Of a DNA stretch of 64,000 nucleotides, positions 4,214-61,729 are shown in pieces. The stretch spans positions 8,808 to 72,807 of the forward strand of contig CALIMJ010000038.1 of the NCBI GenBank assembly GCA_938028835.1, in the 5' to 3' direction. This DNA is from an uncultured bacterium. GTDB taxonomy: Bacteria > Sysuimicrobiota > Sysuimicrobiia > Sysuimicrobiales > Sysuimicrobiaceae. The first letter of the stretch is position 1, and each line of letters starts with the position of its first letter. The notes under the pieces are model-generated. The model had not been told where the DNA came from and ran no database searches. It worked only from the letters and a program-made list of their open reading frames with translations. Both the position numbers and the translations under genes were made by a program.

Positions 4214-5664
4214 GGGACTTCCCGTTGATCTTCGAGCGGAGCGTGCCGGGCCGCCGCGGGTTTGGGTTGCCGGAGTCGGACGTGCCCGCCCAACCCCTGG
4301 AGGAGCTGGTGCCGCCGCAGGCCTTGCGGAGGCGGCCGCCCGCCCTGCCCGAGGTGAGCGAGCTGGATGTGGTCCGCCACTACACCCGGCTCAGCCACCG
4401 TAACTTCTCCATCGACGAGGGGTTCTACCCCCTGGGCTCCTGCACCATGAAGTACAACCCCAAGCTGCATGAGGAGCTGGCGCGGCTGCCGGGCTTCGCC
4501 CGCCTCCACCCCTACACGCCCGAGGAGCTGGCCCAGGGAGCGCTGCAGCTCCTGTGGGAACTGGGGGAGGAGCTGCGGGAGCTGGCGGGGATGGACGCGG
4601 TGACCTTCCAGCCCGCCGCGGGCGCCCACGGGGAGCTGGTGGGCCTGCTGGTGATCCGCGCCTACTTCGCTTCCCGGGGCGAGAAGCGCACCCGGGTCAT
4701 CGTCCCGGACTCCGCGCACGGCACCAACCCGGCCACCGCGGCCATGGTGGGGTACGAAGTGGTCACCGTGCGATCCGACGCCCGGGGCAATCTGGACTTG
4801 GCGGCCCTGGAGCAGTACCTGGACGAGCGCACCGCGGCGCTGATGTTGACCAACCCCAACACCCTGGGGCTCTTCGAGGAACAGGTGGACCGGATCTCGG
4901 AGCGCGTGCACGCCGTGGGCGCGCAGATGTACCTGGACGGGGCCAACTTCAACGCCATGGTGGGCATCACGCGGCCCGGTGACCAGGGGTTTGACGTGAT
5001 GCACATGAACCTGCACAAGACCTTCTCCACTCCCCACGGCGGGGGCGGTCCCGGAGCCGGGGTGGTGGCGGTGAAGTCCCACCTGGAGCCCTTCCTGCCC
5101 GTCCCCGTGGTGGTCCGGGACGGTGACCGGTACCGGCTGGACTTCGACCGGCCGCAGTCGGTGGGCCGGGTGCGGGCCTTCTACGGGAACTTCGCGAACC
5201 TGGTGCGGGCGTACGCGTATCTCCGGACGCTGGGAGCGGAGGGGCTGCGGGCGGTGGCGGAACACGCGGTCCTGCACGCCAACTACCTGCGCGTCCGGCT
5301 GGCCCCGTACTACGAGATCCCGTACCAGCGCATCTGCAAACACGAGTTCGTCGCCTCAGGCGTGCGACAGAAGCGGCGGGACGGGGTCACGACCCGGGAC
5401 ATCGCCAAGCGGCTGCTGGACTACGGTTTCCACGCTCCGACGGTGTACTTCCCCCTGATCGTGGAAGAGGCCATCATGATCGAGCCCACGGAAACGGAGA
5501 GCCTGCAGACCCTGGACGCGTTCGTGGACGCCATGGTCGCCATCGACCGGGAGTGCCGGGAGGACCCGGAAAAGGTGCGCACCGCTCCCCACACCACCGC
5601 TGTGGGCCGCCTGGACGAGGTGCGGGCGGCCCGCCAGCTGGACCTCCGGTGGAGGCCTGCCTGA
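4210..5664 (+). CDS. gcvPB: Glycine dehydrogenase (decarboxylating) subunit 2 (PLP-binding)
   Basis: ATG 4210 overlaps gcvPA TGA (ATGA); [30 protein letters not shown]-lysine motif; 484 aa. Confidence 0.85.
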
Positions 5665-5748: not shown

Positions 5749-6141
5749 TTGGAACCGAAGCCCGCGCGAATCCGGGTGGTGGACGTGGAGGGGTGGGAGT
5801 TTCCTGCGGGCCGGCGGACGCGGGTTTTCGCGGGTGTGGCGGGGCTACCCACCCGGAACTTCGTCATGGGCCAGAGCCAGATCTATCCGGGCGGTGGGAT
5901 CCCCCGACACGCGCACGAGAACGAGGAGGTCTACCTGATCCTCAAAGGTCGGGCGCACATGACGGTCGGGGACGAGACGTTCGAGGTCTCGGAGGGGACC
6001 GCGGTCTACCTGCCGCCCAACGTCCCGCACGGGCTGACGAACGCGGGGGAGGAGGACGTGCTCCTGCTGTTCGTGTACTCGCCGGCCACGTTGGTGTCCC
6101 ACTGGAGTGAGGAACGACAGAAAGGAGGGAGGAGGACATGA
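5749..6141 (+). CDS. Cupin-2 domain protein
   Basis: TTG 6 nt after GGGGAGG; cupin motifs HAHENEEVYLILKG ... TAVYLPPNVPHG; 130 aa. Confidence 0.65.
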   Translation: MEPKPARIRVVDVEGWEFPAGRRTRVFAGVAGLPTRNFVMGQSQIYPGGGIPRHAHENEEVYLILKGRAHMTVGDETFEVSEGTAVYLPPNVPHGLTNAGEEDVLLLFVYSPATLVSHWSEERQKGGRRT

Positions 6142-7139
6142 GCAAGCGGTGGGTTGTTCTGCTCCTCGTGACCGTGCTGGCCACGGCAGGGCTCGCCTCC
6201 GCGGCCCCAAGCTGGCGACCCTCCCGCCCCATTACCGTCATCGTGCCTTGGCCCGCCGGAGGCTCCACGGACATGACGGCCCGGGTGCTCGCGAGCCAGA
6301 TGGAGCGGTTTTTGGGGCAGCGCATCGTGATCGTGAACACACCGGGAGCCGGAGGCGCTATTGGGATGAAGGAAGCCTGGGATCGTCCACGGGACGGTTA
6401 CACCTGGGCGGCCAACTCCAGCACGGCGGTCATCAGCTACCCTGTACTCGGTCAGCTGGAGGTCACCCACCGTGACTGGCTGTACTTCTACGTCCTGTAC
6501 GCGCCCAACGTGATCGCCGTTCCCGCCAACTCGCCGTTCCGGACCGCGAAGGACCTCGCAGACGCCATGCGGGCGCGACCCGGAGCCGTTCGTGTCTCCT
6601 CCGCCGGGGCGGGCAGTTCTGGACACCTGGGTGCAGAGACATTCCGGCTTGTTGTGGGCGCTACCTACCGCCACGTGGCGTACGCGGGCGGCGCGCCCGC
6701 GGTGGTCGCGGCGGTCCAGGGGGAGGTGGAGGCGGTCATGCAACTTTCCATGGAAGTGGCGGAGATGCTCCGGGCAGGTCGTCTCCGGGCACTGGCGGTG
6801 ATGTCCCGTAGTCCGCTGACCATGGAGGGCTACGGGGTGATCCCCCCTATTAGCCAGGTGTTTCCTAACTTTCCGGAGACCGGTTCGTACTTCGGGCTGA
6901 TGGTGCCGAAAGACATGCCCGCTGACATCGTGGCTGCGGTGGAGGCGGCTTTTCGTCCCGCCTCAGAAGCTCCCGCGGTGCGTCTGTTCGCGCGCCAGAA
7001 CGGGGTGGTGGCGGTGAGCCTGTCGGGCCGTCAAGCTACAGAGGTGACGGAGCAGAAGGCCCGGCGGGTGGCCTGGACCCTGTTCGAGGCGGGGCTGGCG
7101 AAAAAGACGCCGACGGAGCTGGGGATTCCCCGGCCTTGA
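6138..7139 (+). CDS. tctC: Tripartite tricarboxylate transporter substrate-binding protein (TctC/Bug family)
   Basis: ATGA overlap with cupin stop; signal peptide, then the Bug-family core PITVIVPWPAGGSTDMTAR ... NTPGAGGAIG. Confidence 0.8.
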   Translation: MSKRWVVLLLVTVLATAGLASAAPSWRPSRPITVIVPWPAGGSTDMTARVLASQMERFLGQRIVIVNTPGAGGAIGMKEAWDRPRDGYTWAANSSTAVISYPVLGQLEVTHRDWLYFYVLYAPNVIAVPANSPFRTAKDLADAMRARPGAVRVSSAGAGSSGHLGAETFRLVVGATYRHVAYAGGAPAVVAAVQGEVEAVMQLSMEVAEMLRAGRLRALAVMSRSPLTMEGYGVIPPISQVFPNFPETGSYFGLMVPKDMPADIVAAVEAAFRPASEAPAVRLFARQNGVVAVSLSGRQATEVTEQKARRVAWTLFEAGLAKKTPTELGIPRP

Positions 7140-7140
7140 G

Positions 7141-7638
7141 GTGCAGGAGGGGGATGTGACGGAGGGGCGGCCGACAACGGCTTCCCTTGCAGACACGGCT
7201 GGCGCCGTCGTTCTGGCAGGGGTGGCTCTGGGATTCCTTAAGGCCGCGCTGGACATCCCTGCTGACACCGCCCTTTGGACCTGGTACGACTCTCCGGGGC
7301 TGACGCCGGCCCTGTTGGCCGGCGGCCTCTTGCTCCAGTCGCTGGTCCTCCTGGCGAGATCCCTACTGGCACCGGGGAGGGGAATCGGTGGGACGGCCGG
7401 GCTCAGGGGGGCGCGCTCGTGGGGCGCAGGACGCGTCCTGGCGGCCTTGGCTTTCTGCGTGGCCTTTGTGGCCCTCATGGGGCGGGTACCCTTCGGGGTC
7501 CTGGTGGCGGCGCTGGTGTTCGCCGTGACGGTGGCCTTCCGCGGAACGGACGCACCCCGTGCGGCGGTTCTGGCGGTGCTCACTGCGATCGGGGTCGTGC
7601 TGGTGTTCGGCCGGCTGTTTTTCGTGCCGCTGCCATGA
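7141..7638 (+). CDS. tctB: Tripartite tricarboxylate transporter small membrane protein (TctB family)
   Basis: Small 4-TM hydrophobic protein between tctC and tctA; start could be GTG 7141 or 7156. Confidence 0.6.
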   Translation: MQEGDVTEGRPTTASLADTAGAVVLAGVALGFLKAALDIPADTALWTWYDSPGLTPALLAGGLLLQSLVLLARSLLAPGRGIGGTAGLRGARSWGAGRVLAALAFCVAFVALMGRVPFGVLVAALVFAVTVAFRGTDAPRAAVLAVLTAIGVVLVFGRLFFVPLP

Positions 7639-53016: not shown

Positions 53017-53373
53017 TTAGGTATTTCGGGCCACGACGATCTCGCTGTCGAAAAACCTCTCCTGGAACTCCACGAGGGCTCGGATCTCGTGCGCGGAGAA
53101 CGCCCTGCCTTCGGGCGCGACGACCAGCTTGTCTTCCTCGTCGTCGTGTCGGATGACGACACCGACCACAACGCCCTCGAAGGCCTGGAGGGGCTCGTAG
53201 ACGCCCAGAAGGTACGCATCCACGGGCGACCCGTCGCCGGACAGGGTGCCCGGCACGAACCCGTAGTTCACCGTGTACCAGATCGGATGACCGGCGGGGT
53301 GACGGCTCCCGAGCGGCCGGTCGACTTGGACGCGGACGCGTGCGCCCAGAAACTGCCGGAGGTCCGGTTTCAC
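53017..53373 (-). CDS. Short inorganic-pyrophosphatase-like protein
   Basis: Matches the family-I PPase core YTVNYGFVPGTLSGDGSPVDAYLLG (cf. [23 protein letters not shown]), but is only 118 aa and lacks the N-terminal strands. Confidence 0.45.
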   Translation of the reverse strand: MKPDLRQFLGARVRVQVDRPLGSRHPAGHPIWYTVNYGFVPGTLSGDGSPVDAYLLGVYEPLQAFEGVVVGVVIRHDDEEDKLVVAPEGRAFSAHEIRALVEFQERFFDSEIVVARNT

Positions 53374-54355: not shown

Positions 54356-54765
54356 GCGCCCAGAAGCTGGGCCGCCCGTTCGTAGTCCTCGGCCCTCACC
54401 CAGAGGATCATCCCGTAGCGGCCCGCACCCGCGGTGGTGGCGGCTGCAGCAGTGATGTTGATCCCCCCCTCGCTGAGCTTGCGGATGTGCTCGGCGGCCG
54501 CCCCGACCCGGTCGTCGCCCTGTACCAGGAACGCCCGCTTGGGCGCGCTGAGCTGCCAGCCCTCCTGCGCGGCCACCCGCCGGAGCGCGTCGGGGTCCTC
54601 TGCCACCAGGTCCAGCTGGGCGCGCCCGCCCTCCACGGGGAACCCGAGATAAGCCAGCAGGTTCACCCCCGCCCGCTGCAGGGCCGCCAGTATCCGGAGC
54701 CCTTCGCCAGGCCGGTCCGGCACCACCACGTACTGGTACTCCACGCGCCGCACCACGTCCGCCAT
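54352..54765 (-). CDS. ACT-domain pair protein
   Basis: Two ACT-like beta-alpha-beta-beta-alpha-beta halves; 137 aa; 4-nt convergent overlap with the DLH gene. Confidence 0.5.
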   Translation of the reverse strand: MADVVRRVEYQYVVVPDRPGEGLRILAALQRAGVNLLAYLGFPVEGGRAQLDLVAEDPDALRRVAAQEGWQLSAPKRAFLVQGDDRVGAAAEHIRKLSEGGINITAAAATTAGAGRYGMILWVRAEDYERAAQLLGA

Positions 54766-54896
54766 GGCGCACCCCCCTTGTCCTTTCTGTCAGGTCCATT
54801 GTGCAGCAGCCGCGAGCCCGGCGACACGAGGTGTTGACGCAGCCTGCCGGGAGAAGCTAGACTTTAGCCTAAGCAAATTTAGTCGGAGGCAAACCA

Positions 54897-55550
54897 GTGA
54901 CCTCGGCCGCGGTGCAGGACTACCTGAAGGCGATCTACAAGCTGGGCCGGTCGGGCGTGCCGGTGGCCACCAACGCTATCGCCGCGCACCTGCGCGTGGC
55001 ACCCGCCTCCGTTACCAAGATGCTGAAGCGGATGAGCGCGCAGGGGCTGGTGACGCACACGCCGTACCACGGTGTGCGCCTGACGGCGGCCGGCCAGCGG
55101 GCGGCCCTGGAGGTGATCCGACACCACCGGCTGCTGGAGCTGTACCTGACGGTGAAGTTGGGGCTGCCCATCGAGCAGGCCCACGAGGAGGCGGAGCGGC
55201 TGGAGCACGCCCTGTCGGAGGACCTGGAAGAGCGTATCGCGCGGGTGCTGGGCGACCCCACCTCAGACCCTCACGGCGACCCCATCCCCAGCTCGGCCGG
55301 GGAGCTGCAGGAAGAGCAGCACCCCCGGCTTTCCGAGGCCGCGGCGGGCAAGACGTTCCGTGTGGAACGGGTCAGCGACAGCGATCCGGAACGACTCCGG
55401 CGTCTTGCCTCCCTGGCCCTACTGCCCGGCGCGCAGCTCCGGGTGCTGCGGAGGTCCGGCGGGTCGGTGACCGTGCAGACCGCAGAAGCCACCCACCGGC
55501 TGCCGGTGCGGGCCGCGGAGGGCGTGTTCGTGCGGGAGGTGCGGGAGTGA
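54897..55550 (+). CDS. mntR: DtxR/MntR-family metal-dependent transcriptional repressor (Mn-type, with FeoA/SH3-like C-domain)
   Basis: HTH (AIAAHLRVAPASVTKMLKRM), metal-site helix EQAHEEAERLEH (Glu at the DtxR Cys102 position, as in Mn-type repressors), DPHGDPIP; 217 aa. Confidence 0.8.
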   Translation: MTSAAVQDYLKAIYKLGRSGVPVATNAIAAHLRVAPASVTKMLKRMSAQGLVTHTPYHGVRLTAAGQRAALEVIRHHRLLELYLTVKLGLPIEQAHEEAERLEHALSEDLEERIARVLGDPTSDPHGDPIPSSAGELQEEQHPRLSEAAAGKTFRVERVSDSDPERLRRLASLALLPGAQLRVLRRSGGSVTVQTAEATHRLPVRAAEGVFVREVRE

Positions 55551-56452
55551 GGGGTACCGGGGCGCTCGTGGCCGCCGTGCTCCTGCTCCTTGTCCTCGCG
55601 GGCTGCGCGCCCGCTCCGGCTCCCTCGGCCACGCGGCCCAAGGCGGTGGCGACCATCAACATCCTGGCGGACTTCGTCTCGCAGCTGGCGGGCGACCGGG
55701 TGGAGGTGGTGAGCCTGATCCCGGTGGGCGGCGATCCCCACACGTACGAGCCGGTGCCCCGAGACGTGCAGAAGGTGGCGGAAGCGCAGATCGTCTTCTA
55801 CAACGGGCTGGGGCTGGAGAAGTGGCTGGAGGAGCTCATCGAGAACGCCGGCGGCCGCCGGGTGTCGGTGGAGCTCACCCGCGGTCTGCGGCCCGCCGTC
55901 CAGACGGAGGGACGGTACCGCGGAGACCCCGACCCGCACCTGTGGATGGACCCCGTGTTCGCCAAGCAGTACGTCCTGAACGCGCGGGACGCGCTGCGGT
56001 CTTTCGACCCGGCCGGCGCGGCCACCTACGAGGCCAACGCGGCCCGCGTGTTGCGGGAGCTGGACGCCCTGCACGCCTGGATCCAGGAGCAGGTCACCCG
56101 CATCCCTCCTCACCGGCGCAAGCTGGTTACCACCCACGACGCGTTCCGCTACTTCGGCCAGCGGTACGGGTTCCGGGTGGTGGGCACCATCTGGGGAATC
56201 AGCACCGAGGACGAGCCCTCCGCGCAGGAGATCGCGCGCCTGGTGGACCGCATCCGCGCGGAGCGGGTCCCCGCGGTGTTCGTGGAGACCACCGTCAACC
56301 CCAAGCTGATGGAGCGGGTGGCGCGGGAGGCGGGGGTCCGCATCGGCCAGAAGCTGTACGGGGACTCCCTGGGACCTCCAGGCAGCGGCGCGGACACCTA
56401 CGTGGGGATGATGCGGCACAACGTTCGGGCCATCGTGGAGGCGCTGCGGTGA
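55547..56452 (+). CDS. Metal (Mn/Zn) ABC transporter substrate-binding lipoprotein (TroA/ZnuA/MntC cluster-9 family)
   Basis: GTGA overlap with mntR after GGGAGG; lipoprotein signal LAGC; cluster-9 fold (INILADFV, GGDPHTYEP, DPHLWMDP, THDAFRYF). Confidence 0.8.
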   Translation: MRGTGALVAAVLLLLVLAGCAPAPAPSATRPKAVATINILADFVSQLAGDRVEVVSLIPVGGDPHTYEPVPRDVQKVAEAQIVFYNGLGLEKWLEELIENAGGRRVSVELTRGLRPAVQTEGRYRGDPDPHLWMDPVFAKQYVLNARDALRSFDPAGAATYEANAARVLRELDALHAWIQEQVTRIPPHRRKLVTTHDAFRYFGQRYGFRVVGTIWGISTEDEPSAQEIARLVDRIRAERVPAVFVETTVNPKLMERVAREAGVRIGQKLYGDSLGPPGSGADTYVGMMRHNVRAIVEALR

Positions 56453-57210
56453 GGGACGTTCCCGCCATCCGGGTGGAGAACCTGACGGTGTCCTACCGGG
56501 GCAAGCCGGCCATCCGGAACGTGAGCGTTGTCGTGGGGCAAGGGCTGCGGGTGGGGCTCATCGGCCCCAACGGCGCGGGCAAGTCCACCCTGCTGCGGGC
56601 TTTGGTGGGGCTTCTGGTGCCGGACACCGGGCGGGTGGAGCTGTTTGGCCGGCCCGTCCGGGAGGCGCGCAAGCTGGTGGCCTACGTGCCGCAGCGCAGC
56701 GAAGTGGACTGGGACTACCCCGTGGTGGCGGAGGAGGTGGTCCTCATGGGACGGTTCCCCCACGTGGGCTGGGTGCGCCGGCCGCGGCCGGAGGACCGGC
56801 GCGTGGCGCGCGAGTGCCTGCGGCAGGTAGGGATGGAAGCCCTGGCGCACCGTCAGATCGGACAGCTGTCCGGGGGCCAGCAGCAGCGAGTTTTCCTGGC
56901 GAGGGCTCTGGCCCAGGAAGCCCGGCTGCTCCTCCTGGACGAGCCCTTCGTGGGTGTGGACGCAGCCACCGAGGAGGCCATCTACGGTCTGCTGGACCGG
57001 TTGCGGGAGGAGGGGCGGACGGTGGTGGTGGCCACCCACGACCTGAGCCGCGCCCAGACCGCTTTCGACCGGCTGCTGCTGCTGAACCAGCACGTGGTGG
57101 CCTACGGCCCGCCCGCGGAGGTGTTCCAGCCTGCGCTGCTGCAGCGCACCTACGGGGGCCGGCTCACCCTCCTGGAGGTGGCGGACCAGAGGATGGCGAT
57201 CAGGCCATGA
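56449..57210 (+). CDS. Metal ABC transporter ATP-binding protein
   Basis: GTGA overlap; Walker A GPNGAGKST, signature LSGGQQQR, Walker B LLLLDEP; 253 aa. Confidence 0.85.
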   Translation: MRDVPAIRVENLTVSYRGKPAIRNVSVVVGQGLRVGLIGPNGAGKSTLLRALVGLLVPDTGRVELFGRPVREARKLVAYVPQRSEVDWDYPVVAEEVVLMGRFPHVGWVRRPRPEDRRVARECLRQVGMEALAHRQIGQLSGGQQQRVFLARALAQEARLLLLDEPFVGVDAATEEAIYGLLDRLREEGRTVVVATHDLSRAQTAFDRLLLLNQHVVAYGPPAEVFQPALLQRTYGGRLTLLEVADQRMAIRP

Positions 57211-58736
57211 GCCTGTGGGAGCTGGTGGTCGAACCCCTGCAGTACACCTTCATGCAGCGGGCCCTGACGGCCGCCCTACTGGTGGGCAGCATCTGCGCGG
57301 TGCTCAGCTGCTTCCTGCTGGTCAAGCGGTGGGCCCTGTTGGGCGACGCCATCTCGCACGCGGTGCTTCCAGGGGTGGCCCTCGCGTACCTGTTGGGCCT
57401 GCCCTTCTTCGTGGGGGCGGTGACCACGGGAATTTTGACCGCGCTGGGGATCTCCGCGGTGGAGCGGCACACCCGGATCAAGGAGGACTCCGCGATGGGC
57501 ATCGTGTTCACGGGCGCCTTTGCCCTGGGCTTCGTCCTGGTGAGCCGCATCCGCAGCAAGGCGGTGGACCTGTTCCACATCCTGTTCGGGAACGTGCTGG
57601 GGGTCTCGGACTCGGACCTCGTGCTGACCGCGGTCACGGGCGCGGTGGTGTTGGGAGCGGTCCTGCTGCTGTACAAGGAGCTGGTCCTGTGGACGTTCGA
57701 CCCGGTCGCCGCCGCGGCCATGGGGCTGCCCACGGGCGTGCTGCACTACACCCTCATGTTCCTGCTGTCGCTCACCATCGTGGCGTCCCTGCAAACCGTC
57801 GGCATCGTCCTGGTCGTGGCCATGCTGATCACCCCCGGCGGCGTGGCCTTCCTCCTGACGGACCGCATGTCGCGGATGCTCGGCCTGGCGGTGGCGGTCG
57901 GGGTGGTGTCCACCGTCACAGGCCTGTACCTCTCCTACTACCTGAACGTGGCCTCCGGTGCCACCATGGTCCTCGTGGCGAGCCTGTTGTTCTGCGCGGC
58001 GGTGCTCCTGGGCCCCCGGGAGGGGTTGGTGTGGGAGTGGATGCGGCGCAGGCGCCTGGCGGAGGAACGGGTGGCGGAGGACTTCCTCAAACAGGCCTAC
58101 GTGCTCGGCCCGGAGGGCTGGGCACCGGAACGGGTGGCGGAGCGGGTGGGCCTTTCGGCGCGCCGGGCCTGGCAGCTCCTGCGGAGGCTGCAGAAGGCGG
58201 GGCTGGTGCGCTGGGACGGGTCACGGGTGAGCCTGAGCGAGGCCGGGAGGGCGAGGGCGGTGGAGCTGGTCCGTTCGCACCGCCTGTGGGAACGGTACCT
58301 GGTGGAACAGGCGGGCCTGTCGTGGGCGGAGGTCCACGCGGAGGCGGAGCGGCTCGAGCACCTGAGCCCGACGGAGCTGGCGGCCCGGTTGGACGAGGCC
58401 CTGGGCCATCCCCGGCGGGACCCCCACGGGTCGCCGATCCCCCCCGAGGTCGCAGGCGCGGTGCCTTCGGTCCGCCTGCTGGATCGCGCACCGGGCGAGC
58501 GGGTGGAGGTGCGGGAGGTGGAGGACGAGGACCCGGAGGTCCTGCGGGCCCTCGAGGCGCGCGGGGTGCGGCCGGGCGTCCGTCTGGAGGTGTTGGAACG
58601 GGCTCCGGGTGGCCTGCGGGTGCGGTGCGACGGAGAGGAGGTGTGGCTGGACGCGCACCTGGCGGCCGCGGTGTACACGCAGGCGGAGGCAGGGTCCAGG
58701 GACGACGACGGGATGTCTGAGCTCCAAGGTGTGTAG
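57207..58736 (+). CDS. ABC-3 metal permease (MntB/ZnuB-like) fused to a C-terminal DtxR-family repressor domain
   Basis: ATGA overlap with the ATPase gene. First ~280 aa are an ABC-3 permease (8 TM). The remaining ~225 aa are a complete DtxR-like module: HTH, VRSHRLWERYLVEQAGLSWAEVHAEAERLEHLSPTE, DPHGSPIP, and an FeoA-like C-domain. No stop separates the two. Confidence 0.75.
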   Translation: MSLWELVVEPLQYTFMQRALTAALLVGSICAVLSCFLLVKRWALLGDAISHAVLPGVALAYLLGLPFFVGAVTTGILTALGISAVERHTRIKEDSAMGIVFTGAFALGFVLVSRIRSKAVDLFHILFGNVLGVSDSDLVLTAVTGAVVLGAVLLLYKELVLWTFDPVAAAAMGLPTGVLHYTLMFLLSLTIVASLQTVGIVLVVAMLITPGGVAFLLTDRMSRMLGLAVAVGVVSTVTGLYLSYYLNVASGATMVLVASLLFCAAVLLGPREGLVWEWMRRRRLAEERVAEDFLKQAYVLGPEGWAPERVAERVGLSARRAWQLLRRLQKAGLVRWDGSRVSLSEAGRARAVELVRSHRLWERYLVEQAGLSWAEVHAEAERLEHLSPTELAARLDEALGHPRRDPHGSPIPPEVAGAVPSVRLLDRAPGERVEVREVEDEDPEVLRALEARGVRPGVRLEVLERAPGGLRVRCDGEEVWLDAHLAAAVYTQAEAGSRDDDGMSELQGV

Positions 58737-58761
58737 CAGCCGGCCGCGGCAGGCGGGGTCC

Positions 58762-59505
58762 TCAGCGGAGGATCTTCGACAGGAAGGCCCGGGTGCGCTC
58801 GTGGCGGGGCTGGGTGAAGAAGGTTTCGGGCGGCGCTACCTCCACGACGGCGCCCTCGTCCAGGAAGACGATGCGGTCCGCCACCTCCCGCGCAAACCCC
58901 ATCTCATGAGTCACCACCACCATGGTCATCCCCCGGCGGGCCAGGTCCCGCATCACGTCCAGCACCTCCTGGATCATCTCCGGGTCCAGGGCGGAGGTGG
59001 GCTCGTCGAACAGCATGATCTTCGGCTGCATGGCCAGCGCCCGGGCGATGGCCACACGCTGCTGCTGCCCGCCCGACAGCTGCGACGGGTAGCTATCCGC
59101 CTTCTCGGGGATCCCCACGCGTTCCAGCAGCTCCCGGGCCACCCGCTCCGCTTGCTCGCGGGGCCACTTCCGCACGAGCACCGGCGCGAGGGTGATGTTC
59201 TGGAGCACCGTCAGGTGCGGGAACAGGTTGAACTGCTGGAAGACCATGCCCACCTCCCGGCGGACCGCGTCCACGTGGCGGAGGTCGTCGGTGAGCTCGA
59301 TCCCGTCCACCACGATGCGCCCCCGGTCGTGTCGCTCCAGCCGGTTGATGCAGCGGATGAGGGTGGACTTCCCTGATCCGGACGGCCCGCAGACGACTAC
59401 GACCTCCCCCGGCCACACCTCCAGGTCGATCCCCCGGAGCACATGGAGCCGCCCGAACCACTTGTGCACGCCCTGCAGGAGGATGATGGGGTCTATGCGG
59501 CTCAC
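58762..59505 (-). CDS. Polar amino-acid ABC transporter ATP-binding protein
   Basis: GTG 59505 overlaps permease stop (GTGA); [34 protein letters not shown]; 247 aa. Confidence 0.85.
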
Positions 59506-60152
59506 GGGACCTCCGCCGCCAGCCGGCGTTCCAGGCGTTGGGTAGCCACGGACAGCGGGTAGCACAGGAGGAAGTACAGCGCCGCCACCACGAGCCAGAT
59601 TTCGAAGGACGCGAGGGTGCGTTCCACGACGCGCCGGCCCGCGGTGGTCAGCTCGAACACGTTCACGATGGCGGCCAGGGAGGTGTCCTTCAGCAGGGTG
59701 GTGAACAGCCCCATGAGGGGCGGCAGGGTGCGCCGCAAGGCCTGCGGCAGGATGACCCAGCGAAGCGTCTGGGGGGAGCTCAACCCCAAGGACCGGGCCG
59801 CTTCCCACTGGCCCCGGGGCAGGGACTGGATGGCCCCCCGGACGATCTCCGCGGTGTTGGCGGCGGCGAAGAAGGTCATGGCCACGCTGGCGGCTACGAA
59901 GGCGTTCAGCCGGATCCCCACCGCCGGCAGACCGAAGAAGATGAAGAAGATCTGCATGATCAGCGGGGTGTCCCGGAACAGCTCCACGAAGACCGTAGCC
60001 GCCGCGTACACCGCGCCGCGGCCCAGACGCGCGATCCCCACCACAAACCCCAGGACCGTACCCAGGGCCATCACCAGCAGGCCCAGCAGCACGGTACCCT
60101 GAAGGCCCTCCAGGAGGTACGGCAGGTTGGCGGCCACGACGGTCCAGCGCAT
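59502..60152 (-). CDS. Amino-acid ABC transporter permease (His/Glu/Gln/Arg/opine family)
   Basis: EAA-loop region ([25 protein letters not shown]); 216 aa. Confidence 0.8.
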
Positions 60153-60158
60153 GGTCGA

Positions 60159-60830
60159 TCAACGGTCCCGTACCCGCAGGTACGCCAGGGCCCGGGACTC
60201 CACGTTCCGCAGGGCCCACACGAGCAGGAGGACGAGGGCCAGGTACAGGAGCGTGGCCATCCCGTATACCTCGAAGCTGCGGAACGTCCACGCTTCCAGG
60301 TCGCGGGCCACGAAGGTGAGCTCCACCATGCCGATGGCGGACACCAGGGACGAGTTCTTCACCAGGGCCACGAAGTTGTTGCCCAGGGCGGGGAGACTGA
60401 TGCGCACCGCCACGGGGAGCACCACGTGGCGGAAGCGCTGCCAGCCAGACAGCCCCAGGGCCGCGGCTGCCTCTCGGAGGCCCCGGGGGACCGCCTCCAG
60501 TCCGGCACGGAAGACCTCTGCGTTGTAGGCGGCGGTGTACAGGGAAAGCGCCAGCAGGCCGGACTGGAAGGGCGACAGGCGCAGCCCCACTCGGGGCAGG
60601 CCGAAGAACACGAAGAAGATCTGCACCAGCAAGGGCGTGTTGCGGAAGACCTCCACGTAGGCGGCCCCCAACCAGCGCAGCGGGGGCAAGGGGGCCGTGC
60701 GGGCGGCCGCGACAGCGACTCCCACGGCAGCAGCCAGGGCGATGGCGAGGGCGGAGACCTGGAGGGTCAGCAGGGCCCCGCGCAGGAGGGTGGGTAGCGC
60801 ATCGACCCAGAACTGCGCGGGGCCCGCCAT
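60159..60830 (-). CDS. Amino-acid ABC transporter permease (second membrane subunit)
   Basis: EAA-loop ([25 protein letters not shown]); 223 aa. Confidence 0.8.
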
Positions 60831-60840
60831 GGGAGCGTGA

Positions 60841-61656
60841 CTAGAGCTGGAGCTCCAGCGGGCACTTGGTCGCCGGCAGCAGCTGCCCGGCCACTTCCCC
60901 GAACCACTTGCCCACCAGCTTGGCGTGGACGCCCTGGGCCCGCAGGCGGGCCAGGGCCACGTTGATGGCGGCCAGCAGGTCCGTGTCGCCCTTGCGGACG
61001 CCGATCCCGTACGGACCCGGCATCTGCGGCGGCCAGCCCACTACCTTCAGGGTGGCGTCCTGCTTGGCGAAGGCCAGCAGCAGCACGTCGTCCTGCACGA
61101 AGGCCTCGGCGCGGCCGTCCTTGAGGGCGAGGAGGGCCTCGGAGTTCTGGCCGAAGGTGATCCGCTGGGCCTGAGGCGCCAGGGTTGCCACCACGCGGTC
61201 ACCGGTGGAGCCCTGGACGGTGGCCACCCGTCTGCCGTTGAGGTCCGTGAACCTGGTGATGGTGGTGTTGTCGCGGCGCACCAGGATCAGGTGACCGGAG
61301 CAGAAGTACGGCACGCTGAAGTCCACCACCTGCTTGCGGGCGCGGGTGATGGTCATGGTGGCCACCACCGCGTCGATCTGCTCCGTCTGAAGCATGGGGA
61401 TGCGGTTCGCGGAGGTCACCGCCACCAGCCGGACGCGGTCGGGGCTGCCCAGCACGATGCGGGCGATCTCCCGGCTCAGGTCGATGTCGAAGCCCTGGAG
61501 CTGACCGCGCTCGTCCACGAAGCCGAAGGGCGGGAAGTCCGCCTTCACGCCCACCACCAGAACGCCCCGCTGGCGAGCCACGTCCAGGGTGCCCGCGGCG
61601 AAGGCCACCCCGCTGACCAGCGCAGCCACGCAGACCGCCGCCAGCAGCTTCCTCAT
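60841..61656 (-). CDS. Amino-acid ABC transporter substrate-binding protein (family 3)
   Basis: ATG 61656 after GGGAGGTGAGG; signal peptide, SBP_bac_3 pattern (LVVGVKADFPPFGF..., GFDIDL); 271 aa. Confidence 0.8.
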   Translation of the reverse strand: MRKLLAAVCVAALVSGVAFAAGTLDVARQRGVLVVGVKADFPPFGFVDERGQLQGFDIDLSREIARIVLGSPDRVRLVAVTSANRIPMLQTEQIDAVVATMTITRARKQVVDFSVPYFCSGHLILVRRDNTTITRFTDLNGRRVATVQGSTGDRVVATLAPQAQRITFGQNSEALLALKDGRAEAFVQDDVLLLAFAKQDATLKVVGWPPQMPGPYGIGVRKGDTDLLAAINVALARLRAQGVHAKLVGKWFGEVAGQLLPATKCPLELQL

Positions 61657-61729
61657 CCGCCTCACCTCCCCGCTGGGGATTCGCAACCCAGAAGGTAACG
61701 CGAGGGACGGCGGGGGGCAACCGGGTGGG

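Follow-up and report, generated by a model that had tools for sequence, protein, structure and literature searches.

Does a DtxR-type sensor fused to an importer permease address DNA or the transporter? A YtgCR-type metal importer operon with a canonical regulator of its own

The limits that bacteria set on manganese, zinc and iron uptake are usually explained by soluble repressors. Fusions of a permease with a repressor are the one case in which sensor and transporter form a single polypeptide, and functional study of them has so far been made only in Chlamydia, which is hard to manipulate. Such a fusion is encoded in a stretch of 64,000 nucleotides (the window) of contig CALIMJ010000038.1, from an uncultured bacterium of the Sysuimicrobiaceae. 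Between 54897 and 58736 the plus strand of the window carries a four-gene operon for a metal importer of the ATP-binding cassette (ABC) type, in which a DtxR-family regulator is encoded first and a second DtxR module is fused to the permease encoded last. The conservation pattern of this fused protein poses the question of whether its sensor addresses DNA or the transporter. If it acts on the transporter, this would be a new mode of ABC importer regulation; if it acts on DNA, a known mechanism would be extended to more phyla. The window operon and its relatives represent the system in free-living bacteria of high GC content; the DtxR module is complete and, unusually, has a canonical regulator beside it. 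They would offer a tractable example. By analogy with the YtgCR protein of Chlamydia we lean, tentatively, towards an autoregulated importer to which a second, canonical repressor has been added.

Our Pfam search of the fused protein identified an ABC-3 permease domain (residues 12–267, E = 5e-85), PF02742 (345–412, 9e-27) and FeoA (423–490, 2e-13). The same search gave no match to PF01325, and only a weak HTH_24 match at residues 310–335. The permease half resembled PsaC (7kyp; E = 1e-62, TM-score 0.87, 41% identity), and its Asp47 and His51, which are invariant in homologues, match Asp46 and His50 of the translocation-pathway metal site of PsaC. The other half matched whole DtxR-family repressors (5zr6, IdeR, SloR and ScaR), and its model fitted the whole Mn-bound repressor 5zr6 with a TM-score of 0.83. 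No solved structure covering both halves was found. A preliminary description, made from the sequence, had read the permease open reading frame (ORF) as running past the domain of eight transmembrane (TM) helices into a complete second DtxR module. Our analysis agrees with this: no stop codon intervenes, and the two motifs that it had listed, AEVHAEAERLEH and DPHGSPIP, are present.

With a cut-off of E ≤ 1e-5, a homology search of a large protein collection gave 6,696 matches, a count that takes in fused and unfused proteins alike. Of the best 120, nearly all had 490–515 residues and contained ABC-3, Fe_dep_repr_C and FeoA; a further class of fused homologues, of about 415 residues, is without FeoA. 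Fused homologues numbered well over 100 and came from many phyla, the sources among the matches including Armatimonadota, Bacillota, Gemmatimonadota, Methylomirabilales, Bipolaricaulota and one Woesearchaeota record. Some carry the JGI name 'ABC-type Mn2+/Zn2+ transport system permease subunit/Mn-dependent DtxR family transcriptional regulator'. Among species-representative genomes, 42 of the best 80 loci were fused, as in Symbiobacterium thermophilum, Thermaerobacter, Ignavibacteria, Phycisphaerae, Acidimicrobiales, Euzebyaceae and many Saprospiraceae (Lewinella cohaerens, Flavilitoribacter nigricans, Portibacter marinus). Whether fusions of this kind occur in related genomes had been raised in the preliminary description, and they proved to be widespread.

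The junction between the two halves was of constant length. From the conserved Pro270 after TM8 to Asp292 it measured exactly 23 residues in all 118 database proteins and in all 52 proteins derived from genome loci of several phyla, with a median net charge of +5. An AlphaFold2 monomer model of the window protein (mean predicted local distance difference test score, pLDDT, 88.5; predicted TM-score 0.74) places after TM8 (residues 250–268) a short turn and then one continuous helix (274–300, pLDDT about 89–95), which comprises the linker and helix alpha-1 of the DtxR module. The C-terminus of the permease is probably cytoplasmic, by analogy with PsaC-GFP expression fusions and given the basic junction.

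It might be supposed that the fused module is a decaying relic, or that the fusion is an artefact of assembly or sequencing. The relaxed selection on the winged helix and linker described below would suit such an origin. The metal-binding and dimerisation domain, however, has a ratio of nonsynonymous to synonymous substitution rates (dN/dS) of 0.13 and invariant ligands. An assembly or frameshift artefact was rejected because the same uninterrupted ORF recurs in well over 100 independent assemblies, the 118 database and 52 locus-derived homologues sharing it together with a junction of identical length. We regard this explanation as extremely improbable, and the conservation data effectively refute it.

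A further explanation is that the DtxR part is translated chiefly from an internal start, as a soluble protein in its own right, the fusion being incidental. The preliminary description had placed an ATG at 58058, from which such a copy might be initiated. This proved mistaken, since 58058 is out of frame and the letters at that point read AGGCGCCTGG; the real candidates are an ATG at 58041 (Met279) and a GTG at 58071 (Val289). The GTG has a Shine-Dalgarno sequence 5 nt upstream, similar to the operon's own gene starts (the regulator, binding protein and ATPase genes all begin with GTG, with GGAGG about 7 nt upstream), and independent initiation of the DtxR part may occur in the window strain. 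However, this GTG with its Shine-Dalgarno sequence was present only in the window and in a relative whose fused protein is 94% identical. A start codon with Shine-Dalgarno sequence at the domain boundary was absent from the eight other loci checked (L093, L081, L084, L086, L088, L090, L089 and L091), and neither Met279 nor Val289 was conserved in homologues. No promoter or terminator was found within the operon when 54600–58900 was scanned. Moreover, the fixed junction length speaks for the fused form as the product under selection. Since neither candidate is conserved, internal translation initiation was rejected as a conserved mechanism, and a mainly separate soluble product is most improbable.

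The alignment of the 118 fused proteins was then read for the residues that coordinate metal in DtxR. Asp292 (DtxR Met10) was found in 117 of them, His377 (His98) in 115, and His358 (His79), Glu362 (Glu83), Glu384 (Glu105) and His385 (His106) each in all 118; the DPHG..IP motif was nearly invariant. Position 381 (Cys102) was mostly Glu, His or Asp, and is Glu in the window protein. Judged from this alignment, the metal-coordinating residues of DtxR (D292, H358, E362, H377, E381, E384 and H385) are kept in the fused domain of the window.

The winged helix was never deleted, having 65–73 residues in all 118 proteins. Its recognition helix was basic (median net charge +3; at least +2 in 85% of the fused proteins), yet it was among the least conserved parts of the fused protein. 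Identity by region was compared in seven matched operons. It was 79–93% for the permease, 71–91% for the fused dimerisation domain and 66–84% for the helix-turn-helix (HTH) domain of the standalone regulator, but 35–56% for the HTH domain of the fused module. Nei-Gojobori medians of dN/dS over 21 pairs, which are rough values given non-independent pairs and a dS of about 0.6–0.8, were 0.10 for the permease, 0.13 for the fused dimerisation domain, 0.18 and 0.23 for the standalone dimerisation and HTH domains, 0.38 for the fused FeoA domain, 0.55 for the linker and 0.56 for the fused HTH domain.

We considered whether the fused HTH is variable only where a standalone regulator lies beside it. 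This was rejected, because it is equally variable in Bacteroidota, whose fused proteins had 31% identity in the HTH against 65% in the dimerisation domain, and a like imbalance was found in Planctomycetota. The imbalance is therefore a property of the fusion family and not of the second regulator. The fused module thus has its DNA-binding fold, but with a hypervariable recognition helix under relaxed selection, so that the lack of DNA-binding residues in the C-terminal module, which the preliminary description had named as telling against its own reading, was found in part.

The standalone regulator presents another picture. Its Pfam matches (PF01325, E = 6e-18, 65 bits against a cut-off of 26; PF02742, 6e-28, 97 bits against 27; FeoA, 2.5e-12) identify the gene product by sequence as a DtxR/MntR family metalloregulator, and its best match in the PDB was 8pvt (2.6e-50). 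Its best NCBIfam model, the Thermus-type MntR, scored 210.7 bits against a cut-off of 350, by which it is classed as a member of the family and not as a curated equivalog. The recognition helix is MntR-like (PASVTKMLKRM), and its PASVTKM part was nearly unchanged from Armatimonadota to Ignavibacteria and Saprospiraceae. Over 192 residues the two DtxR modules of the operon share 38% identity. In both, Asp occupies the position of DtxR Met10 and, as the preliminary description had correctly read, Glu that of Cys102, a combination which we take, from the literature on DtxR/MntR selectivity, to be the Mn-type pattern.

Analysis of the upstream region revealed a sigma-70-type promoter, the sole site of this kind in 54600–58900 (one found, 0.1 expected). 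When the upstream regions of seven orthologous operons (the window and six relatives) were aligned, a TTGAC −35 element, a TAnnnT −10 element and then two abutting TTTAG-N6-CTAAA boxes were kept across them. A counterpart of box 1 stood at the equivalent position in seven of seven promoters, and in all six relatives the second box began exactly 15 bp after the first; the window's own box 2 matches the pattern only at three mismatches. In the 64-kb window the pattern occurred three times against 2.2 expected, two of these being boxes 1 and 2. This count alone is not significant, and the support for the boxes comes from their position and conservation. An inverted-repeat search upstream of 54897 found none. 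The short, imperfect boxes came to light only when the orthologous promoters were aligned. Palindromes, for which the preliminary description had suggested looking in this region, are present as a conserved pair. Box 1 also resembled the DtxR iron-box core TTAGCCTAA, but this likeness was specific to the window and absent from the orthologues, and was not used.

The MntR box of E. coli is ATAGC-N4-GCTAT, whose half-site resembles that of TTTAG-N6-CTAAA. From this resemblance and from the conserved, MntR-like helix we infer that the standalone regulator is the predicted reader of the boxes. Boxes of the same type (TTTAGCCATGGCTAAA, TTTAGATTTGCCTAAA and TTTAGGTTAGACTAAA) were also found upstream of fused operons in Symbiobacterium, a Bacteroidia metagenome-assembled genome (MAG) and another Armatimonadota genome (L001, ~4267–4282; L041, ~4228–4243; L089, 3229–3244). 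No standalone DtxR gene was found within 5–6 kb of the fused operon at these three loci.

These observations may be brought together in the reading that we tentatively put first, that of an importer which regulates itself in the YtgCR manner and has a second, canonical repressor as well. A single promoter would drive the four-gene importer operon, on which two DtxR-family metal sensors would exert negative feedback. The metal-loaded standalone regulator would bind the two abutting boxes, cover the transcription start and the ribosome-binding site, and so turn the whole operon off. Because the fused gene is the only permease gene of the operon, a permease homodimer would carry two fused modules, as many as make up one DtxR dimer. 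This module would sense metal beside the transporter and, if YtgCR is a guide, would add a second tier of feedback by acting as a repressor, whether released by proteolysis or still tethered. YtgCR is the sole experimental precedent, and this model would account for the constant presence of a full, basic winged helix, a feature that fits nucleic-acid binding. The preliminary description had suggested that a tethered repressor could couple metal flux through the transporter to regulation. The suggestion is reasonable, but it is that of the published YtgCR model and not a novelty.

Several points weigh against this reading. The fold of the fused DNA-binding domain is kept and its helix is basic, yet the helix is hypervariable, and dN/dS was higher for the fused than for the standalone HTH in 21 of 21 pairs. 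PF01325 was detected in only 7 of 34 fused proteins, as against 34 of 34 for PF02742. Among relatives with conserved promoter boxes the identity of the fused recognition helix was 35–59%, and the boxes in Symbiobacterium, the Bacteroidia MAG and the other Armatimonadota genome are of the same type, yet the fused recognition helices there are unrelated. A linker serving only for cleavage would not be expected to hold its length in 170 of 170 sequences; the alignments and the monomer model present the junction as fixed in length and largely helical, with no hint of a cleavable loop. Even in Chlamydia, no cleavage site or protease is known for YtgCR (PMC5599777).

An alternative, doubtful but with a good deal to be said for it, is that the fused module is a cytoplasmic metal sensor which throttles the transporter (trans-inhibition) and not an operator-reading repressor, transcription being handled by the standalone regulator. 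Metal bound between Asp292 of alpha-1 and the dimerisation domain would act through the rigid helix of fixed length on TM8, or would clamp the ATPase dimer. The junction, invariant across phyla, and the continuous helix leading into the ligand-bearing alpha-1 argue for this, as does the contrast between invariant metal ligands and a fast-changing recognition helix. So do the canonical regulator with conserved boxes in the same operon, the recurrence of these boxes elsewhere with unrelated fused helices, and an ATPase in which Pfam found ABC_tran only (E = 7.5e-32) and no C-terminal regulatory domain. Two points of background were counted on the same side, namely the link between SH3 domains of the FeoA type and the Feo iron transporter, and the substrate trans-inhibition of MetNI and ModBC. 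Trans-inhibition explains the invariant junction, the continuous helix and the fast recognition helix beside conserved boxes better than the YtgCR model does.

On the other hand, action of a DtxR module on a transporter would be without experimental precedent, YtgCR, the one homologue that has been studied, binds DNA, and the winged helix is always full-length and basic. The AlphaFold2 model is of a monomer and does not give the geometry relative to the ATPase dimer. The more specific claim, that in this lineage the fused module is a metal-sensing gate (Asp292 / Glu384-His385) by which the importer shuts itself down once there is enough metal in the cytoplasm, is one we rate as decidedly doubtful. 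If true, it would make the DtxR fold an allosteric regulator of a transporter, with trans-inhibition exerted through the membrane subunit of an ABC importer.

The two DtxR modules could also act together, the membrane-bound one pairing with the standalone regulator and sequestering or releasing it according to metal status. Both paralogous modules are kept in one operon across the clade (68–94% identity), and the dimerisation domains are conserved in both. But at most fused loci no standalone gene lies within 6 kb, so that pairing cannot be the general role of the fusion, and for the window we consider it most improbable.

The coordinates of the operon and its elements are collected in Table 1. 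The gene order and the 4-nt overlaps given in the preliminary description were borne out by the ORFs and Pfam.

Table 1. Features of the importer operon and its promoter region (window positions)
Feature	Position	Strand	Remarks
Sigma-70-type promoter	54834..54863	+	TTGACG-18-TAGACT
Operator box 1	54863..54878		TTTAGCCTAAGCAAAT; MntR-type 16-bp imperfect palindrome, TTTAG-N6-CTAAA; begins at last −10 base
Operator box 2	54878..54893		TTTAGTCGGAGGCAAA; abuts box 1 in a 15-bp register; overlaps Shine-Dalgarno sequence of first gene
Standalone DtxR/MntR-family regulator	54897-55550	+	217 aa; winged HTH, metal/dimerisation and FeoA/SH3 domains
Cluster A-I (ZnuA/PsaA/TroA family) substrate-binding lipoprotein	55547-56452	+	301 aa; lipobox LAGC; GTGA overlap with preceding gene
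ABC ATPase	56449-57210	+	253 aa; ABC_tran; GTGA overlap with preceding gene
Fused ABC-3 permease / DtxR-module protein, YtgCR-type	57207-58736	+	509 aa; ATGA overlap with preceding gene
Permease domain	57240..58007	+	aa 12-267; 8 TM helices
Junction Pro270..Asp292	58014..58082	+	23 residues; strongly basic
In-frame ATG, Met279	58041..58043	+	probably the codon meant by '58058' in the preliminary description; not conserved in homologues
In-frame GTG, Val289	58071..58073	+	GGAGGA 5 nt upstream
Winged-helix domain, fused module	58077..58238	+	aa 291-344; recognition helix ~317-331; Asp292 is a metal ligand
Metal-binding/dimerisation domain, fused module	58239..58442	+	aa 345-412
FeoA/SH3-like domain, fused module	58473..58676	+	aa 423-490

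With its PF01297 (ZnuA) binding protein (E = 9e-95), an ABC-3 permease bearing the TM2 Asp/His site and an ATPase, the window operon is a cluster A-I metal ABC importer. Its region has a G+C content of about 70%. In NCBIfam none of the four proteins received an equivalog-level assignment, all scores being below the cut-offs. The four-gene operon, standalone regulator included, was kept in relatives whose fused protein is 68–94% identical, and it was also present in the distant bacterium HR37. The closest protein to the fused gene product (94% identity) came from an Armatimonadota MAG. On that contig the upstream neighbours are as in the window (pyruvate/2-oxoacid:ferredoxin oxidoreductase, Zn-ribbon, dienelactone hydrolase-like and ACT-domain genes), and so is the downstream one, a convergent polar amino-acid ABC transporter.

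In the window this transporter lies on the minus strand at 58762-61686, 25 bp beyond the stop codon of the fused gene, and the search for a terminator-like hairpin between the convergent genes gave none. Its ATPase domain was identified by Pfam, and its two permeases and binding protein were assigned from the syntenic genes in relatives (BPD_transp_1, SBP_bac_3). A 509-aa ORF listed at 58762-60291 is an over-extended form of the ATPase gene in a high-GC frame. Upstream of the operon, a minus-strand ORF of 118 aa (53017-53373), between the oxidoreductase beta-subunit and Zn-ribbon genes, had a partial match to the inorganic pyrophosphatase profile PF00719 (E = 3e-8, profile positions 32–108 of 153). 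No gene was called at the equivalent position in L081, L084 or L093.

Two other arrangements were seen among the homologous loci. In L019, L025, L033 and about 20 other Bacteroidota loci (Saprospiraceae and kin), no binding-protein or ABC ATPase gene was found within 6 kb on either side, and the fused gene (~5900–7500 in those three and their kin) stands alone. For want of such neighbours, a search for a conserved operator upstream of the Saprospiraceae fused genes yielded none. In a Spirochaetaceae MAG (L036:5824-7538) the two parts are unfused. The permease ORF ends at 6852, and a separate, canonical MntR-like gene (MPSSTVEQYIKIIY...) follows about 25 nt later in another frame. This arrangement resembles troD-troR of troABCDR, and from its sequence it is a plausible precursor of the fusion.

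The metal that is carried may be judged from the binding protein and the two regulators. The predicted ligands of the binding protein are His65, His131, His197 and Asp273. The third aligns as His197 (THDAF, against TSEGAF in MntA 5hx7, which has Glu), so that the site is His-His-His-Asp instead of the Mn-type His-His-Glu-Asp. TroA and AztC have a His3Asp site, and PsaA/MntA-type proteins have His-His-Glu-Asp. The best relatives in the PDB were Mn/Fe proteins (MntA, YfeA, PsaA and MntC), and in NCBIfam the Deinococcus MntC and zinc AztC models scored nearly equally, both below cut-off. Both regulators look Mn-type from the Asp and Glu at their selectivity positions. On these mixed features the imported metal is best taken, provisionally, as Mn, possibly Zn.

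A fusion of permease and DtxR module is already known and is not a new kind of system. What is new here is the conserved helix of a standalone regulator together with its boxes, a fast-evolving DNA-reading domain beside kept metal ligands, and a junction fixed at 23 residues. YtgC(R) of Chlamydia trachomatis (CT069/CTL0325) is an ABC-3 permease with a C-terminal DtxR-like domain, whose last 139 residues act as an operator- and iron-dependent repressor of the ytg and trpBA promoters (PMC5599777, PMC7755916, PMC6504234). The repressor part is reportedly cleaved off and does not act only while tethered, and orthologous fusions have been reported in 11 phyla (PMC5599777, PMC7755916, PMC6504234). 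A C-terminal fragment of about 28–30 kDa was detected in infected cells and in E. coli (PMC5599777, PMC6504234). This is larger than the functional DtxR domain of 139 residues (about 16 kDa; PMC5599777, PMC6504234), so the natural YtgR fragment would include part of the permease, possibly transmembrane helices. Its size bears on whether the 'released' repressors of the fusion family are really soluble.

Likened to CT069 as that protein has been described, the window fusion is of the YtgCR type by architecture, operon context and metal ligands. As in ytgABCD, permease and DtxR module form a single ORF, the operon includes a cluster A-I binding protein and an ATPase, and the DtxR ligands are kept. 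The systems differ in four respects. The module of the window protein has about 220 residues and includes the FeoA/SH3 domain, which YtgR, being only the last 139 residues, does not. Chlamydia has a second permease gene, ytgD, and the window has none. The window operon adds a canonical standalone MntR-type regulator with conserved boxes of its own. Finally, its regulators look Mn-type, whereas YtgR is reportedly Fe-dependent.

The window operon also resembles troABCDR of Treponema as a cluster A-I importer operon with a DtxR-family repressor, and TroA has a His3Asp site like that of the window binding protein. In T. pallidum and T. denticola, the DtxR-family TroR, responsive to Mn, Zn and Fe, is encoded beside the permease gene (PMC2628430). 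TroR is, however, a separate protein encoded last, while in the window one regulator is encoded first and the second is fused to the permease. The Mn system of Deinococcus and Thermus (MntR/DR2539-type, MntABC) is related through the best NCBIfam models of the window proteins (Thermus MntR, Deinococcus MntC and MntA, all below the equivalog cut-offs). The regulators there are described as separate genes, and a permease fusion is unmentioned in the Deinococcus review. With Streptococcus pneumoniae PsaBCA (7kyp) the window shares the permease fold, the eight TM helices and the TM2 Asp/His metal site; but PsaC stops soon after TM8, its regulator PsaR is a protein of its own, and PsaA has a His-His-Glu-Asp site.

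MetNI and ModBC are subject to trans-inhibition by their substrates through a cytoplasmic sensing domain at the C-terminus of the ATPase. Only if the fused module acts on the transporter would the window importer be comparable to them, as a transporter with a covalently attached substrate sensor. Unlike in MetNI and ModBC, the sensor would then have a DtxR fold and sit at the C-terminus of the permease, the ATPase of the window being without a regulatory domain.

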